A DNA stretch of 30,673 nucleotides from a virus. Lineage: Duplodnaviria; Caudoviricetes. Position numbers and translations under genes: made by a program. Positions 3,231-15,826 of the stretch are shown piece by piece. The DNA lies in the IMG/VR virus record IMGVR_UViG_3300044878_000069, positions 1-30,673 of that record, one strand, 5' to 3'. Below the pieces are notes generated by a model. It was not told where the DNA came from. It searched no databases and saw only the letters and a program-made list of their open reading frames with translations. Each line of letters opens with the position of its first letter. Positions within the stretch are counted from its first letter, which is position 1.

Positions 3231-4568
3231 ATGTCAACAAGCTACGCAGACAGCGCCCAGGCCCGGGAATGGGATCGACGGTATGACGCATGGGGCAGAC
3301 CCAAGCAGGCTTCGGCTGACTTCTTCCACGACTACGAGGCGAGCGCCGCCCGGAGCGCTGAGCGGGAAGCGATCCGACTGGCCGAACGCAAGGCCGCCCA
3401 GGTGCGGATCAATGCGGCCGTTGAGCAGATCGGCGACTTCTTCGGACTAAATGACAACATTTCTCAAAGTCCCTTGCACGGGACCATCGACGTACAAGGG
3501 GTGAACATGAACGCAACGACTGAACTGGCCACCGTGCCACCAAAGGAAACCGCGCTGGCCGTGTACAGCGCGCCGAACGGCCTGGAGCCGTGGCTGCAAA
3601 AGATCCGCGACGAGGTTCTGGCATTAGTTCCAGACACCAGCACCGCAAAGGGTCGCGCCGCCATCGCCTCTATTGCCTATAAGGTCGCGAAGTCGAAAGT
3701 GGCCCTGGACGACGCCGGCAAAAAGCTGGTGGCCGAGCTGAAGGAAGTCCCGAAGCTGATCGACGCAGAGCGCAAGAGGATGCGCGAGACGCTGGAGGCT
3801 CTTCAGGATCAGGTCCGTCGCCCACTGAATGAGTGGGAGGAAAAAGAGGCGGCCCGGGTCGCTGCGCACAAGGCCGTGATCGCGCACATCGAAAACACCG
3901 ACACCGCCGGCATGAGCGCTGCGCTGATCGGTGCCAAGGTCCAGGATCTGGACAGCCTGGAGATCAACCAGGAGCTGGAAGAGTTCGAGGCCGACGCACA
4001 CCGGGCAAAGGCTGCCTCTCTGGCGATCCTGCGCAAGACCCTGGCAGACCAGGAGCAGTACGAGGCGGAACAGGCCGAACTGGTCAGACTGCGAGCCGAG
4101 GCTGACGCCCGCGAGCAGAAAGAGCGCGAGCAACGAATCGCCCACGAAGCCGCCGAGAAGGCCCGCATCGAGGCGGAACAGAAGGCGCAGCGCGAGCGGG
4201 ACGAAGCAGCCAAGCGCGAGAACGACCTGAAGCTGGCCGCGGCCGAGTCTGAACGCAAGGCCGAGCAGGCAAAGCGCGACAAGGAAGAAGCCGACCAGCG
4301 CGCCGAGCGTGAGCGCAAAGAGGCGGCAGCCCGGCAAGAGCAAGCAGTCGAGCAGGCGCGACTGGATGAGCAGAAGCGCGCAGACGATGCCGCCGCCGAG
4401 ATCATCCGCCAGCAGGACGCCCGCGCAGCCGATACGGCGCACCGCGGCAAGGTCAACCGGGCAGCGCTGGAAGCCTTCACCGCTAACGGCATGACCGAAG
4501 CCTGCGCCAAGCAAGCCATCACTCTGATTGTGCTGGGCAAGATCCCGGCCATCACCCTCACTTACTGA
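3231..4568 (+). CDS. Phage coiled-coil (Ala/Glu/Arg-rich, often labelled TolA-like) protein of the recombination module; second likely start at 3507
   Basis: RBS GGAGG at the 5' end and GGGGTG before internal in-frame ATG 3507; motif TAKGRAAIASIAYKVAKSK followed by a long charged helix. Confidence 0.75.
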   Translation: MSTSYADSAQAREWDRRYDAWGRPKQASADFFHDYEASAARSAEREAIRLAERKAAQVRINAAVEQIGDFFGLNDNISQSPLHGTIDVQGVNMNATTELATVPPKETALAVYSAPNGLEPWLQKIRDEVLALVPDTSTAKGRAAIASIAYKVAKSKVALDDAGKKLVAELKEVPKLIDAERKRMRETLEALQDQVRRPLNEWEEKEAARVAAHKAVIAHIENTDTAGMSAALIGAKVQDLDSLEINQELEEFEADAHRAKAASLAILRKTLADQEQYEAEQAELVRLRAEADAREQKEREQRIAHEAAEKARIEAEQKAQRERDEAAKRENDLKLAAAESERKAEQAKRDKEEADQRAERERKEAAARQEQAVEQARLDEQKRADDAAAEIIRQQDARAADTAHRGKVNRAALEAFTANGMTEACAKQAITLIVLGKIPAITLTY

Positions 4569-4575
4569 GGTCGCC

Positions 4576-4719
4576 ATGAACACACCACGACTGACCGCCC
4601 AGCTCGACTGGATGACGGTAGGCGCGTTCGACCCTGAGAAGTACCAGGGCGAACAGCGCAAAGAATATGAAGACGAGGCGCTGCGTATCCAGCGCCAGTG
4701 GGATAACCAGCCAATCTGA
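4576..4719 (+). CDS. Small hypothetical protein (47 aa)
   Basis: RBS GAGG before ATG 4576; tight packing before the ATPase. Confidence 0.65.
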   Translation: MNTPRLTAQLDWMTVGAFDPEKYQGEQRKEYEDEALRIQRQWDNQPI

Positions 4720-4728
4720 GGTGCCGAC

Positions 4729-5367
4729 ATGGCAACTGTAACCCTGATCCTCGGCAAGTCCGGCAGCGGTAAGAGCGCGTCAATGCGCAACTTCAAGCCC
4801 GCCGACGTGGCCCTGATCCAAGTCATCAAAAAGCCCCTCCCGTTTCGAGACTCCAAGGTCTGGAAGCCCTACGTCACGGACGACTGGAACAAGGTCATCG
4901 GCGCCACCCGGCAGACGAAGCGGAAGGTGATCGTGATCGATGACTTCCAATACATCTTGGCCAACGAGTTCATGCGCCGGAGCGAGGAAAAGGGCTTCGA
5001 CAAGTTCACCGAGATCGGTCGGCATACCTGGAACATCTTCGAGGCGATGCTTCATCTGCCCGACGACGTTCGCGTCTACATCCTAAGCCACACCGAGGAA
5101 ACAGACGCCGGCCAGATCAAGATGAAAACCATCGGCAAGATGCTGGACGAGAAAATCACGCTGGAAGGCATGGTGACCATCGTTCTGCGCTCGCTTGTCA
5201 TGGACGGCCAGCACTTCTTCAGCACCCGCAACAACGGATCGGACACGACCAAGGCCCCAATGGGCATGTTCGAAGATCCCATGGTCGAGAACGACCTGGC
5301 AGCGGTTGACGCTGCGATCTGCGATTACTACGACATCAAACCTACCGAAATCACCCAGGCCGCATAG
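4729..5367 (+). CDS. sak4: Sak4-like P-loop ATPase / single-strand annealing recombinase (AAA_24-like)
   Basis: Walker A GKSGSGKS, Walker B VIVIDDFQY, ILSH motif; followed by an SSB-like gene as in Sak4 modules. Confidence 0.8.
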   Translation: MATVTLILGKSGSGKSASMRNFKPADVALIQVIKKPLPFRDSKVWKPYVTDDWNKVIGATRQTKRKVIVIDDFQYILANEFMRRSEEKGFDKFTEIGRHTWNIFEAMLHLPDDVRVYILSHTEETDAGQIKMKTIGKMLDEKITLEGMVTIVLRSLVMDGQHFFSTRNNGSDTTKAPMGMFEDPMVENDLAAVDAAICDYYDIKPTEITQAA

Positions 5368-10243: not shown

Positions 10244-11413
10244 ATGGCTGCGAAGCGCGGGGTGCGTGCGGCATCGAAAAGCAGTATCGAGATCAGCTTT
10301 ATGGTCGACGGCAAGCAGTGCCGGGAGCGCCTGCCGCTGGAGCCTACACCGACCAACTTGAAAAGGGCACAGCAGCAGAAGGCGTCGATTGACCTGGCGA
10401 TTCACCGGGGCGAGTTTGACTATGCCGAGGCGTTTCCCCGGTCGAAGCGGGCGGCGTCGGCTGTCGGCCAGTCGGGACAGGTTCCGCTGGGCCAGTACCT
10501 AGAGGAATGGCTTGAGCGCAAGGCCGGCATCCTGAAGGCGTCCACGCTGGACGGTTACCGCAAGATCGTTGCGGGCGTGCTGGTCCCGGCGCTGGGCTCT
10601 CTCCCGCTGGCATCGGTCACGCGCAAAGAGGTCAAGGCGGCTATGGCCAAGATGTCGGCGACCAACAAGCGGCTGGCCAACGTGCAAAGCTGCCTGCGCT
10701 CGGCCCTGAGTGATGCTGTAGACGACGAACTGATCGAATCGAACCCGCTGGCCGGATGGACGTATTCAGTGAAGGGCAAGCCGCGCACCGAGGACGAGAT
10801 CGATCCTTTCTCGCCGGACGAGCAGCGGGCCATTCTGGCAGCGGCAACCGGGCAGTATCGGAACCTTTTGCAGTTCGCCTTCTGGACCGGCCTGCGCACG
10901 TCGGAACTGGTCGCGCTGGAGTGGGGCGACATTGACTGGCATCGCGGGGAAGTGAGGGTGTCGCGGGGGCTGACAGCAGCAGCCAGCGAGGCAGAGACGC
11001 CGAAGACAGCGGCCGGGGTGCGTAGCGTCAGGTTGCTGCCGATGTCGTTCGAGGCACTGAAGGCCCAGCGCGAACATACATATATAGAGGGGCGAGCCGT
11101 TTTCCACGACCCGAGGCACAACCGGGCATTCAACGGTGACCAGGAGCTGCGCAAGTCGCTCTGGACGCCGACCATCCGCCGGGCAGGCGTGCGCTACCGG
11201 AACCCGTACCAGACCCGGCACACGTATGCCTCGATGATGCTGAGCGCTGGCGAGCATCCGATGTGGGTGGCGAAGCAGATGGGGCACTCGAGCTGGCTCA
11301 TGATTGCCCGGGTCTACGGGCGCTGGATTCCAACCGATGGCGACTCGTCGGGGGATAAGGCGGCGGCGATGTTTGGGCGATCTGAAGAAATGCCGAAATC
11401 TCTCCTTGCATGA
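10244..11413 (+). CDS. int: Tyrosine integrase with N-terminal arm-binding domain (DUF3596-like)
   Basis: TGLRTSEL, PKT, YQTRHTYAS, QMGH, VYG catalytic motifs; N-terminal SIEISF...CRERL...YAEAFPRS. Confidence 0.93.
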   Translation: MAAKRGVRAASKSSIEISFMVDGKQCRERLPLEPTPTNLKRAQQQKASIDLAIHRGEFDYAEAFPRSKRAASAVGQSGQVPLGQYLEEWLERKAGILKASTLDGYRKIVAGVLVPALGSLPLASVTRKEVKAAMAKMSATNKRLANVQSCLRSALSDAVDDELIESNPLAGWTYSVKGKPRTEDEIDPFSPDEQRAILAAATGQYRNLLQFAFWTGLRTSELVALEWGDIDWHRGEVRVSRGLTAAASEAETPKTAAGVRSVRLLPMSFEALKAQREHTYIEGRAVFHDPRHNRAFNGDQELRKSLWTPTIRRAGVRYRNPYQTRHTYASMMLSAGEHPMWVAKQMGHSSWLMIARVYGRWIPTDGDSSGDKAAAMFGRSEEMPKSLLA

Positions 11414-11434
11414 CATACAATGTATGTCTAAGAT
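11406..11434 (+). promoter_or_regulatory. acr-type promoter TTGCAT-N17-TAAGAT with perfect palindromic operator GACATACA-A-TGTATGTC filling the spacer
   Basis: Palindrome 11412-11428 lies exactly between -35 (11406-11411) and -10 (11429-11434), upstream of an aca1-containing operon. Confidence 0.85.
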
Positions 11435-11484
11435 GAGTTCATGCAGGCCACAACGGCCGGCTGAACCCAAAGGAAGAAATCAGC

Positions 11485-11865
11485 ATGAACGGCCAAGCCA
11501 TGAACTCCATCACCAGCCTTATCGAAGACCAGCTGAACATCGCAGTGGCGAGCGCCCTGGAAAAAGTGCTCGACGGCAACATGCTGGAAAAGGCCGACCT
11601 GATGTATCTGACTCCGGCGCTTGATGGCTCTGGAATGCTTGAGCTGATCGTTAATGATGAGGACGGCCAAGTTTCAAGCCCGCGCTTTCAGGGCGCCAAG
11701 CTGATCATTGATCCAATGGCCCTAGTCACCGAGCTGAAAGAGTCAATCGTCGGGGAGGGCGGCGAACCTGACGACGACGTTCGCAACGAATACCGGGCAA
11801 CGATTGCTAGAATGCGCGAAGCGTGTGATGCCTTGGAGTCGATGCTTGGCGCTGGCGACCAATGA
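11485..11865 (+). CDS. Candidate anti-CRISPR / anti-defence protein (126 aa, strongly acidic)
   Basis: Lies between the palindrome promoter and the aca1 homologue (ATGA overlap); 24 D/E versus 9 K/R; no match to Acr sequences I can recall. The ORF is confident; the function is inferred from context. Confidence 0.65.
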   Translation: MNGQAMNSITSLIEDQLNIAVASALEKVLDGNMLEKADLMYLTPALDGSGMLELIVNDEDGQVSSPRFQGAKLIIDPMALVTELKESIVGEGGEPDDDVRNEYRATIARMREACDALESMLGAGDQ

Positions 11866-12092
11866 AGCCGGACGCAACCCAGCACAACCCGGACCCGGTC
11901 TACCTGCGCGAAGTGCTGAAGAAAACGGGACTGACCCAGCGGGCGGTCGCCAAGACCATCGGCCTGACTGCCGCCGGCTTTCAGAACTACATCCGCAAGC
12001 CGACCGATCCGCTGTATCGACCAGCACCGTACACCGTGCAGTTCGCGCTTGAGGCGCTGGCAAATGAGGCCGGGCAGTCCGGCGACAAATAA
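11862..12092 (+). CDS. aca1: Anti-CRISPR-associated HTH repressor, Aca1 family
   Basis: PDATQHNPDPVYLREVLKKTGLTQR...YRPAPYTVQFALEALAN matches the recalled JBD30 Aca1 PDASNHDPDPRYLRGLLKKAGISQR...YRPAPYTVQFALECLAN. Confidence 0.88.
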   Translation: MKPDATQHNPDPVYLREVLKKTGLTQRAVAKTIGLTAAGFQNYIRKPTDPLYRPAPYTVQFALEALANEAGQSGDK

Positions 12093-12107: not shown

Positions 12108-12317
12108 ATGTCCGATTTATTCATATCGCCAGATGAGGCCCGAGCCAGATTCGGCGCGCTGACAGTGACCAGCGGAGCCGTTACGACCGACATCGAGGTT
12201 GTCGTAGCTGGTGGAACGTGGAAGCCATGCTACAGCTCGCTGGATCTTGTGCTGATCGGTTATGAGTTCCATGCAGATGAGCAGCCGCAACCCACTGAAT
12301 CGGGAGAAGACGAATGA
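12108..12317 (+). CDS. Small acidic hypothetical protein
   Basis: RBS AGGGGTG, ATG 15 nt after the aca1 stop, ATGA-coupled to the next gene. Confidence 0.65.
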   Translation: MSDLFISPDEARARFGALTVTSGAVTTDIEVVVAGGTWKPCYSSLDLVLIGYEFHADEQPQPTESGEDE

Positions 12318-14530: not shown

Positions 14531-15826
14531 CTATGTCTTAGCCATATGGCGACTAAATAATATCGGTCTAAAAGCCTTTTGCTTTTTCGGGAGTATGTTA
14601 TAAACGCCTCTCGACAAAGCATATACACCCAGCGCGAACAGTGAGTGCAGCATTATTTTGTAAATGCCCAATTCCATTGATTCCCTGAAACAGAAGAATG
14701 CGAAAAATATACTTGGAAATGCACAGAAGTAGAAAACTACACTCCTTCTGATGGCGAAATAATCAAGGTACACAAAAAACAGCGACATCAAAAACGAACC
14801 AATAAATATGGCAGCCCATCCACCCATGATGTACAGGGAGCCAATACCCGTTGGCGCAATGATTAGTCCTTTGCCGTAACCGAGAATTTGCTCAGTATAG
14901 AAATAAGCAATGGTATCCAGATAGATAGGCTTACCCGGCCAAAGCGCGCGCGGAATAATTGCATAGAACTGGTTAAAGAAATAATCAAAGCCGGCGTGCC
15001 TCATGGAGACATCAATGATATTGGAAAGCGATGCAACTGGAAATACAGTATCCCTTGTATAGAGTGCCAGAAGCTCAAACAGCCCAACCCCAACCGCATC
15101 GCCATACCGAACCAGGGCCAGCGATGTAATCATCAGAACACCAATCACCGCCAACACCGACAGCGCCTTTAAGCTGATCAGCCTCAGCGAATATCCGGCA
15201 ATGAGCACCGGGATAATTGCGGCTATGAGGTAATTCCGGGCGCCCCCAAGAGTCAGGAACAGCAACATTCCATACGCCAGAACCAGAAAAATTGAAGCGA
15301 ATAGCGTTTTCAAGCTCGGCTTTCTATAAAGCAGCAGAACAGCAACCGTCACCATCGAATAGGACAGGATTGTAAACAGCCCTGTCCCCGCATTGGATTC
15401 GAAGCGAGTCCCGTAATTGCCAACATCAAGCGTTACCCCCTTCATCATGAAGAGGGCCGCAAGGCAAGAGGCGGAAATCACAAACGCAACAAATGCGAAG
15501 AATCGCCCATTCGCGGACTTAGAAAAGCCCTGAATTGTCGCAGGCGTTAAAATCTTCCTGTTAGGAATCAGGATTCCTTTGAGCAATATCGGAATTACGC
15601 AGCAAAGGCAAAAAGCCGCCGTGATAAACCCCATGCTTTCAGGTTTTACTGGGTACTCCCACGCCAAATTCATCAGGCTATTACACATAATGTAATATGG
15701 AACCCAAAGAATCATAATCACATAAAATGACAAGACCCCAAAAAATGTAAAGCCGAGTGCGCGCTTCCATTTTCTAAAGAAAAGCACCATGCAAATTGTT
15801 GCAACTATGAAGCAAAATAAATACAT
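14531..15826 (-). CDS. wzy: Wzy-type polysaccharide repeat-unit polymerase, WzyE-like (low-GC moron)
   Basis: About 10-11 hydrophobic segments; GGARNYLI, LALVRYG, YTRDT, IPRALWPGKP, GLIIAPTGIGSLYIMGG resemble recalled enterobacterial WzyE motifs; visibly AT-richer than the flanks. Confidence 0.8.
   Translation of the reverse strand: MYLFCFIVATICMVLFFRKWKRALGFTFFGVLSFYVIMILWVPYYIMCNSLMNLAWEYPVKPESMGFITAAFCLCCVIPILLKGILIPNRKILTPATIQGFSKSANGRFFAFVAFVISASCLAALFMMKGVTLDVGNYGTRFESNAGTGLFTILSYSMVTVAVLLLYRKPSLKTLFASIFLVLAYGMLLFLTLGGARNYLIAAIIPVLIAGYSLRLISLKALSVLAVIGVLMITSLALVRYGDAVGVGLFELLALYTRDTVFPVASLSNIIDVSMRHAGFDYFFNQFYAIIPRALWPGKPIYLDTIAYFYTEQILGYGKGLIIAPTGIGSLYIMGGWAAIFIGSFLMSLFFVYLDYFAIRRSVVFYFCAFPSIFFAFFCFRESMELGIYKIMLHSLFALGVYALSRGVYNILPKKQKAFRPILFSRHMAKT

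Follow-up and report, generated by a model that had tools for sequence, protein, structure and literature searches.

The closest described counterpart of the locus analysed here is the acrIF1-aca1 operon of phage JBD30 (PDB 7vjm, 7vjn and 7fa3), which it resembles in having a promoter with a palindrome at its spacer, a hairpin in the 5′ UTR, and a passenger gene followed by aca1. JBD30 Aca1 contacts its operator through Arg47 (G4), Arg44 (G5), Tyr48 (C6), Val45 and Tyr48 (the A7:T pair) and Arg59 (the C8:G pair), and the R44A and R47A variants abolish DNA binding; bacterial Aca1 homologues vary at residues 44 and 45, retain Arg47, and may bind other targets (PMC8633003). The aca1-linked inhibitors AcrIF2, AcrIC5 and AcrIF6 are, like the passenger described below, small and very acidic. 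Most AcrIC proteins are acidic blockers of DNA binding, and acidity is also common among inhibitors of other systems; Ocr of phage T7, which inhibits type I RM and BREX by mimicking DNA, is an acidic homodimer (PMC7913775). An Aca of the RHH class, Aca14 from Pasteurella, and host-linked RNA-motif clusters in aca operons have also been described (PMC13551039).

The window, i.e. the whole stretch of 30,673 nucleotides that was analysed (a 30.7-kb virus record), represents a temperate siphophage. Its + strand early arm encodes a Sak4-like annealing protein, an SSB, an exonuclease, a DNA methylase and an integrase (Pfam and PHROG matches), and converges with tail, Wzy-like and endolysin genes. 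The nearest DNA relatives are Pseudomonas phages (~69%, integrase only), and the best integrases in a sample of the genus of Pseudomonas sp. 286 are 71–73% identical to that of the window. An att-core probe gave no match within the window, and attP was not found. Between the tail fibre and endolysin genes lies a low-GC gene on the − strand (14531–15826) for a Wzy-like O-antigen polymerase (Pfam WzyE, E 7e-17), a match that suggests a possible role in serotype conversion. The aca1-type operon follows the integrase in the early arm, whereas that of JBD30 lies among Mu-like morphogenesis genes. The features of the region are:

10244..11413 (+), tyrosine integrase (Pfam Arm-DNA-bind_2 and Phage_integrase; phrog_1; survey of 34 loci)
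11406..11411 (+), predicted −35 box TTGCAT (TTG in all 14 of the acr-type promoters aligned)
11412..11428 (+), operator palindrome GACATACA-A-TGTATGTC in the promoter spacer (inverted-repeat search; relatives)
11429..11434 (+), predicted −10 box TAAGAT (relatives carry TATAGT instead)
11440..11463 (+), aca1-type 5′ UTR hairpin, upper stem GGCC-ACAAC-GGCC (fold; aligned leaders)
11470..11474 (+), Shine-Dalgarno-like AAGGA, 10 nt 5′ of the ATG (read from the sequence)
11485..11865 (+), passenger gene, 126 aa, acidic; candidate defence inhibitor (homologues and a predicted alpha/beta homodimer; no family match)
11862..12092 (+), Aca1-family repressor, recognition helix TAAGFQNY (PDB Aca1, E 6e-19; phrog_3865; contact-residue table)
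12108..12317 (+), second acidic orphan ORF, 69 aa, 13 D/E and 3 K/R, just 3′ of aca1 (from sequence)

An aca1-type operon with a recoded repressor

The window does carry an aca1-type operon, whose regulator belongs to a known family but represents a new specificity variant. A sequence-only reading of the DNA had proposed a TTGCAT-N17-TAAGAT promoter with a perfectly palindromic spacer, a short structured leader, and an ATGA-coupled 76-aa HTH gene sharing blocks with Aca1; all three are present. The 17-nt spacer is a perfect palindrome, its 8-bp arms separated by a single unpaired base (8+1+8), occurs once in the window, and lies inside the core promoter, as in Aca1 operons; the promoter overlaps the integrase stop, with the last integrase codons overlapping the −35 box. 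The palindrome alone is of modest significance because five inverted repeats of this kind (arms of at least 8 bp, loops of up to 5 nt) occur across the window, and a consensus promoter scan lists nothing at 11406–11434, where 7 of 12 consensus positions were counted. Palindrome and promoter gain significance because relatives keep both in the same position: same-type palindromes occupy the same promoter spacer 5′ of the same Aca1 class, and every other Aca1 with an AAG(F/L)QNY helix and available upstream DNA has an identical operator or a one-base variant.

The leader had been likened to that of the JBD30 acr gene, which comparison with the leader before AcrF1 in a JBD30-type locus (L024) upholds, at 32 of 47 columns; with the leader before AcrF2 (L017) it aligns at 36 of 46 columns, both names being those of Pfam-named genes. 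The upper stem of the hairpin is invariant in all 14 aligned leaders (lower-stem columns were set by eye and not relied on), the predicted fold has an energy of −10.2 kcal/mol with a z-score of only −1.5, and an Rfam search gave no match. Judged by its description, the single-hairpin aca1 motif in section 19 of PMC13551039 fits this hairpin.

The HTH protein, the last gene of the short operon, aligns over residues 2–70 to solved Aca1 (7vjn, E 6.1e-19), is ~50% identical to JBD30 Aca1 (36 of 71 residues against the JBD30-type copy in L024), and is joined to the passenger gene by an ATGA overlap (11485–11865 and 11862–12092). Arg22, Gln32, Arg33, Tyr49 and Arg59 are shared with JBD30 Aca1, and Ser31 and Ser42 are replaced by threonine. 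In contrast, the base-reading residues Arg44, Val45, Arg47 and Tyr48 are replaced by alanine, glycine, glutamine and asparagine, respectively, and the half-site core is CATAC in the window versus GGCAC in JBD30. The operator is thus altered at exactly the three bases read by Arg47, Arg44 and Tyr48 (G4 to C, G5 to A and C6 to T), with A7 and C8 kept, which places the window Aca1 in a variant class outside the JBD30 specificity class. The proposal of an Aca1-type promoter repeat accordingly holds for the palindrome in the spacer, but not for its sequence, which differs from the JBD30 operator. The palindrome is also centred in the spacer in the window and shifted onto the −10 box in JBD30, where there is a second upstream repeat that the window lacks.

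Covariation between repressor and operator was analysed in 112 loci, 109 with Aca1 and 72 with a called operator; the 37 loci with no called operator, many of which end short upstream, were dropped. Among 62 distinct Aca1 proteins, Gln47 occurs with C in 10 of 10 and Arg47 with G in 50 of 52, and at residue 44 all 46 proteins with arginine or lysine pair it with G, whereas 15 of the 16 with another residue have a base other than G; the rows are related by descent, such that the tree cannot count independent events and Fisher values overstate independence. The class of the window Aca1 groups with Gly45-type Aca1 proteins (support 99/99 with helix columns), and with helix columns removed both fall in a broader group (SH-aLRT 90). 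Two independent origins of the Gln47-to-C pairing, to which the tree with helix columns pointed, were not established, a single clade not being rejected once helix columns were removed (p-AU 0.55). Gly45-type relatives lie behind matches to AcrF6 (L055, E 1.5e-31) and AcrIC5 (L047).

From the residue-base covariation we infer that the variant Aca1 would bind and repress its own palindrome, and that JBD30-type Aca1 would give little cross-repression of the window promoter; this regulatory part of the explanation is very likely correct. The recoded pair answers a question raised by PMC8633003, in which divergent Aca1 homologues are suggested to recognise other DNA, at sites that the study was unable to name. 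Our literature search found no description of Aca1 specificity classes, although the figures or supplements of the papers may show variants of the DNA motif. Aca1 serves as an anti-anti-CRISPR tool, and the JBD30-type protein would likely fail to silence promoters of the window class.

The acidic passenger and its family

The 126-aa passenger is the only gene between the aca1-type promoter and leader and aca1. Its composition, 24 D/E versus 9 K/R, agrees with the earlier count and corresponds to a pI of 4.05, making it the second most acidic of the 32 window genes. It has no match in Pfam, PHROG, PADLOC or PDB, and no similarity to Acr-named families in Pfam, PHROGs or PDB, libraries of incomplete coverage, which named six of eight control passengers from P. 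aeruginosa-type aca1 loci; the earlier impression that it matches no recognisable Acr stands within that scope. NCBIfam likewise gave no match, and left the control Acrs unnamed too, and the ESM Atlas gave no usable match. Weak PDB matches of the family profile (AcrB efflux pump, E 0.18 and above) were rejected as noise. The passenger is unrelated to AcrIF1, and differs from AcrIF2, AcrIC5 and AcrIF6 in sharing no sequence similarity with them, in its larger size, and in its predicted intertwined dimer.

Full-length homologues (P0003 to P0006) share 47–72% identity with the passenger, and more distant ones (P0008, P0009, P0012, P0013, P0024 and P0025) were also found; four repeat proteins (P0007, P0010, P0011 and P0014, of which only P0010 was inspected) were excluded as multi-stretch matches. 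All 13 members measured are acidic (pI 4.05–4.8), even at 26–28% identity, and the passenger is the founding member of a small family that has no name. Where given, the sources of the homologues are JGI, Logan or ENA assemblies and none is from NCBI or UniRef, which argues against a described Acr, although a distant relative may be among the candidates tested in PMC7913775. P0009 and P0025 (~207 aa) each end in an additional domain of ~80 aa that they have in common.

Homologues beside aca genes, a point raised for checking by the sequence-only reading, were found. The homologue P0004 (54% identity) has a mis-called N-terminal extension, 18 of whose 25 residues match a translation of the window operator and leader, and thus lies behind the same operator and leader; run X1 contains a diverged passenger copy of the same length between the same promoter and aca1. 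P0003 and P0004 also come from contigs of the same lengths (29,787 and 1,896) as members of the 90% cluster of the window Aca1, and so appear to lie on the same contigs. No member was detected when the family profile was compared with 205 loci, or beside a known acr gene among the loci scanned, and two RNA-labelled runs (X9 and X22) do not cover the passenger.

The AlphaFold2 monomer model consists of a helix, three short strands and two helices (pLDDT ~70). As a homodimer in ESMFold2 the passenger gives an ipSAE of 0.77, compared with 0.00 for the best control (pLDDT 59–85), with contacts agreeing by at least 50% between runs; of the solved structures used for reference, 20 of 30 homodimers attain this ipSAE mark, compared with 1 of 23 monomers. 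In the model the last helices pair around Met110 and Cys114, seven of the nine best-conserved positions are in the interface, and 17 of the 24 acidic residues are outside it. The passenger is thus predicted to form an intertwined acidic homodimer. Fold searches with two monomer models returned generic helix matches only (best Z 3.8 and 5.8; no Foldseek E below 0.001), and at pLDDT ~70 no claim of a new fold is made. The passenger resembles Ocr in its measured acidity and its predicted dimeric state; there is no sequence match to Ocr.

The slot behind the integrase and the function of the passenger

A survey of 34 IMG/VR loci with integrases at least 84% identical to that of the window, some of which may be re-assemblies of one phage, shows that the DNA 3′ of the integrase stop, the left boundary of the slot, is a promoter-palindrome-passenger-repressor cassette. 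The repressor type is Aca1 in 14 loci, an RHH-type promoter is present in 12 (the repressor gene being seen in nine), Rha occurs in two and other types in three, and one slot is apparently empty and two are truncated. None of the 34 loci carries the window passenger, and in contigs of runs X3, X4, X5, X6 and X9 different DNA spans the slot. The passenger ORF is therefore accessory and the slot swappable, which removes the objection, raised beforehand, that the ORF might be a conserved core phage gene. Recognisable sister passengers are a DNA methyltransferase (L003, phrog_757), Ead/Ea22-like proteins and an HNH endonuclease, the rest being uncharacterised, and none of the 21 passenger ORFs of the 14 aca1 cassettes matches an Acr-named Pfam or PHROG family. 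Outside P. aeruginosa, "upstream of aca1" thus denotes a mixed accessory slot and not a list of Acrs.

The passenger probably has an anti-defence role of some kind, and an anti-CRISPR role is narrowly favoured, at a probability of roughly 0.37. This preference arises because, of ten aca1 passengers that exceed that of the window in acidity, eight fall in sequence clusters with a library-named Acr, and because 7 of 27 aca1- or aca4-linked candidates were active (PMC7913775); the same hit rate leaves 20 of 27 with no activity in that set. It is weakened by the 0 of 21 sister passengers that are known Acrs, and by a survey of 251 genomes from the genus that includes Pseudomonas sp. 286, which may not be the host genus: type I Cas7 was found in only 17 of them (I-F Csy3 in 11 and I-E Cas7 in 6, with no PF05107 Cas7). 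A Cas1 survey (1 of 401 genomes, the single match being in an unpublished genome) recovered fewer than the Cas7 searches and was set aside. Of the proposal of a new Acr or other anti-defence protein, the aca1-type operon, the unrecognised ORF and the homologues in the same setting hold up, whereas the further step to an anti-CRISPR is less supported given the mixed slot, the sister passengers and the scarcity of type I CRISPR.

Mechanistically, known Aca1 biology would imply a strong burst of transcription on entry of the phage DNA, with shut-off following once the variant Aca1 occupies its palindrome. The acidic homodimer may then act as a DNA decoy, filling the site at which a defence complex would bind DNA; the narrowly favoured target of this putative inhibitor is type I Cascade, which would be kept off phage DNA. 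The unnamed acidic predicted dimer is hence a good but unproven counter-defence candidate, small and testable, from a family with no name or fold match.

The fallback offered by the sequence-only reading, another anti-defence protein, is nearly as likely as an anti-CRISPR, though doubtful taken singly. The same Aca1-driven burst and shut-off would then deliver an acidic, Ocr-like dimer inhibiting a non-CRISPR defence such as RM, BREX, phosphorothioate or similar. An acidic homodimer, as predicted for the passenger, is how PMC7913775 describes Ocr, the sampled Pseudomonas genus has little type I CRISPR, and one sister slot carries the DNA methyltransferase; RM, Mom and PAPS-reductase genes occur in aca operons (section 23), and fewer than half of 450 Aca1/Aca2-regulated genes have an assigned function (PMC13551039). 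However, PDB searches matched the sequence to no solved inhibitor, the aca1 passengers of highest acidity in the collection belong mostly to Acr families, and the passenger is rare, which would suit a rare target no less than a ubiquitous one.

A further close rival, about as doubtful taken singly, is that the passenger takes no part in counter-defence and is an accessory gene for some other early function (host takeover, phage competition or lysogeny tuning) in a general autoregulated slot. The 34 loci differ widely in their passengers, HNH endonuclease and Ead/Ea22-like genes included, and in their type of repressor, which is consistent with this, as is the extra domain shared by the two distant family members. 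Yet the close homologues remain tied to the aca1 promoter, acidity is conserved family-wide, and Aca-regulated genes are enriched for counter-defence (PMC13551039). An assembly artefact or a chance non-coding frame is very improbable and largely refuted: although scans of phage, plasmid, IMG/VR, GTDB and JGI metagenome data found no family member, run X1 yields a 640-nt contig identical to 11348–11987 with zero differences, full-length homologues exist, and a ribosome-binding site and ATGA coupling are present.

A broader and more tentative reading, which we consider rather unlikely as a whole, is that Aca1 proteins fall into repressor-operator classes that are orthogonal to one another and follow a simple code from residue to base. 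The lineage would swap these and the RHH repressor as modules, such that the inhibitor burst escapes the Aca1 of other prophages, and the passenger would be the first of a new family of decoys, intertwined acidic dimers whose fold is unrecognised, by which type I Cascade or some other defence that binds DNA is blocked in environmental Pseudomonas.

Sister cassettes and neighbouring genes

The slot survey provides a catalogue of further uncharacterised passengers. The RHH-like cassettes (L120, L126–L129, L133, L135–L139 and L142) share a promoter inverted repeat in all 12, and the RHH-like gene is terminal in nine; the 75-aa protein of L120 (2998–3222) has Atlas features at 0.94 to RHH_1 clusters. 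It is a candidate Aca-like regulator, whose passengers are unnamed except for one HNH endonuclease. The likeness to Aca14 (PMC13551039) is that an RHH-like repressor with its own inverted repeat here replaces aca1, in sister loci and not in the window; the operator is different, and no known acr was found among the passengers scanned.

A third cassette type (L146 and L147, ~4214–5060) combines an Aca1-like promoter palindrome with a 102–107-aa gene and a 136-aa probable HTH protein that has no library match. In L144, the short sequence found 3′ of aca1 in the window comes almost immediately behind the integrase (after position 4146), which makes this apparently an empty slot or an attachment junction. 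Aca1 homologues in L046, L063 and L064 lie 3′ of a membrane-protein gene, where no promoter palindrome was found, and are possibly solo regulators on conjugative elements.

The ORF just 3′ of aca1 (12108–12317) is the most acidic of the 32 window genes, has a low GC3 (0.57), and matched nothing in PDB, Pfam or PHROG. It is missing from relatives, a contig of run X3 skipping 12108–12313, is possibly co-transcribed with the aca1 operon, and is a further inhibitor candidate. The commonest passenger with the same Aca1 class is a cysteine-rich protein of 137–143 aa (phrog_22771; L002, 2574–2984; L004, L005, L045 and L051–L053), which has no Pfam or PDB match and is found in two different genomic slots.
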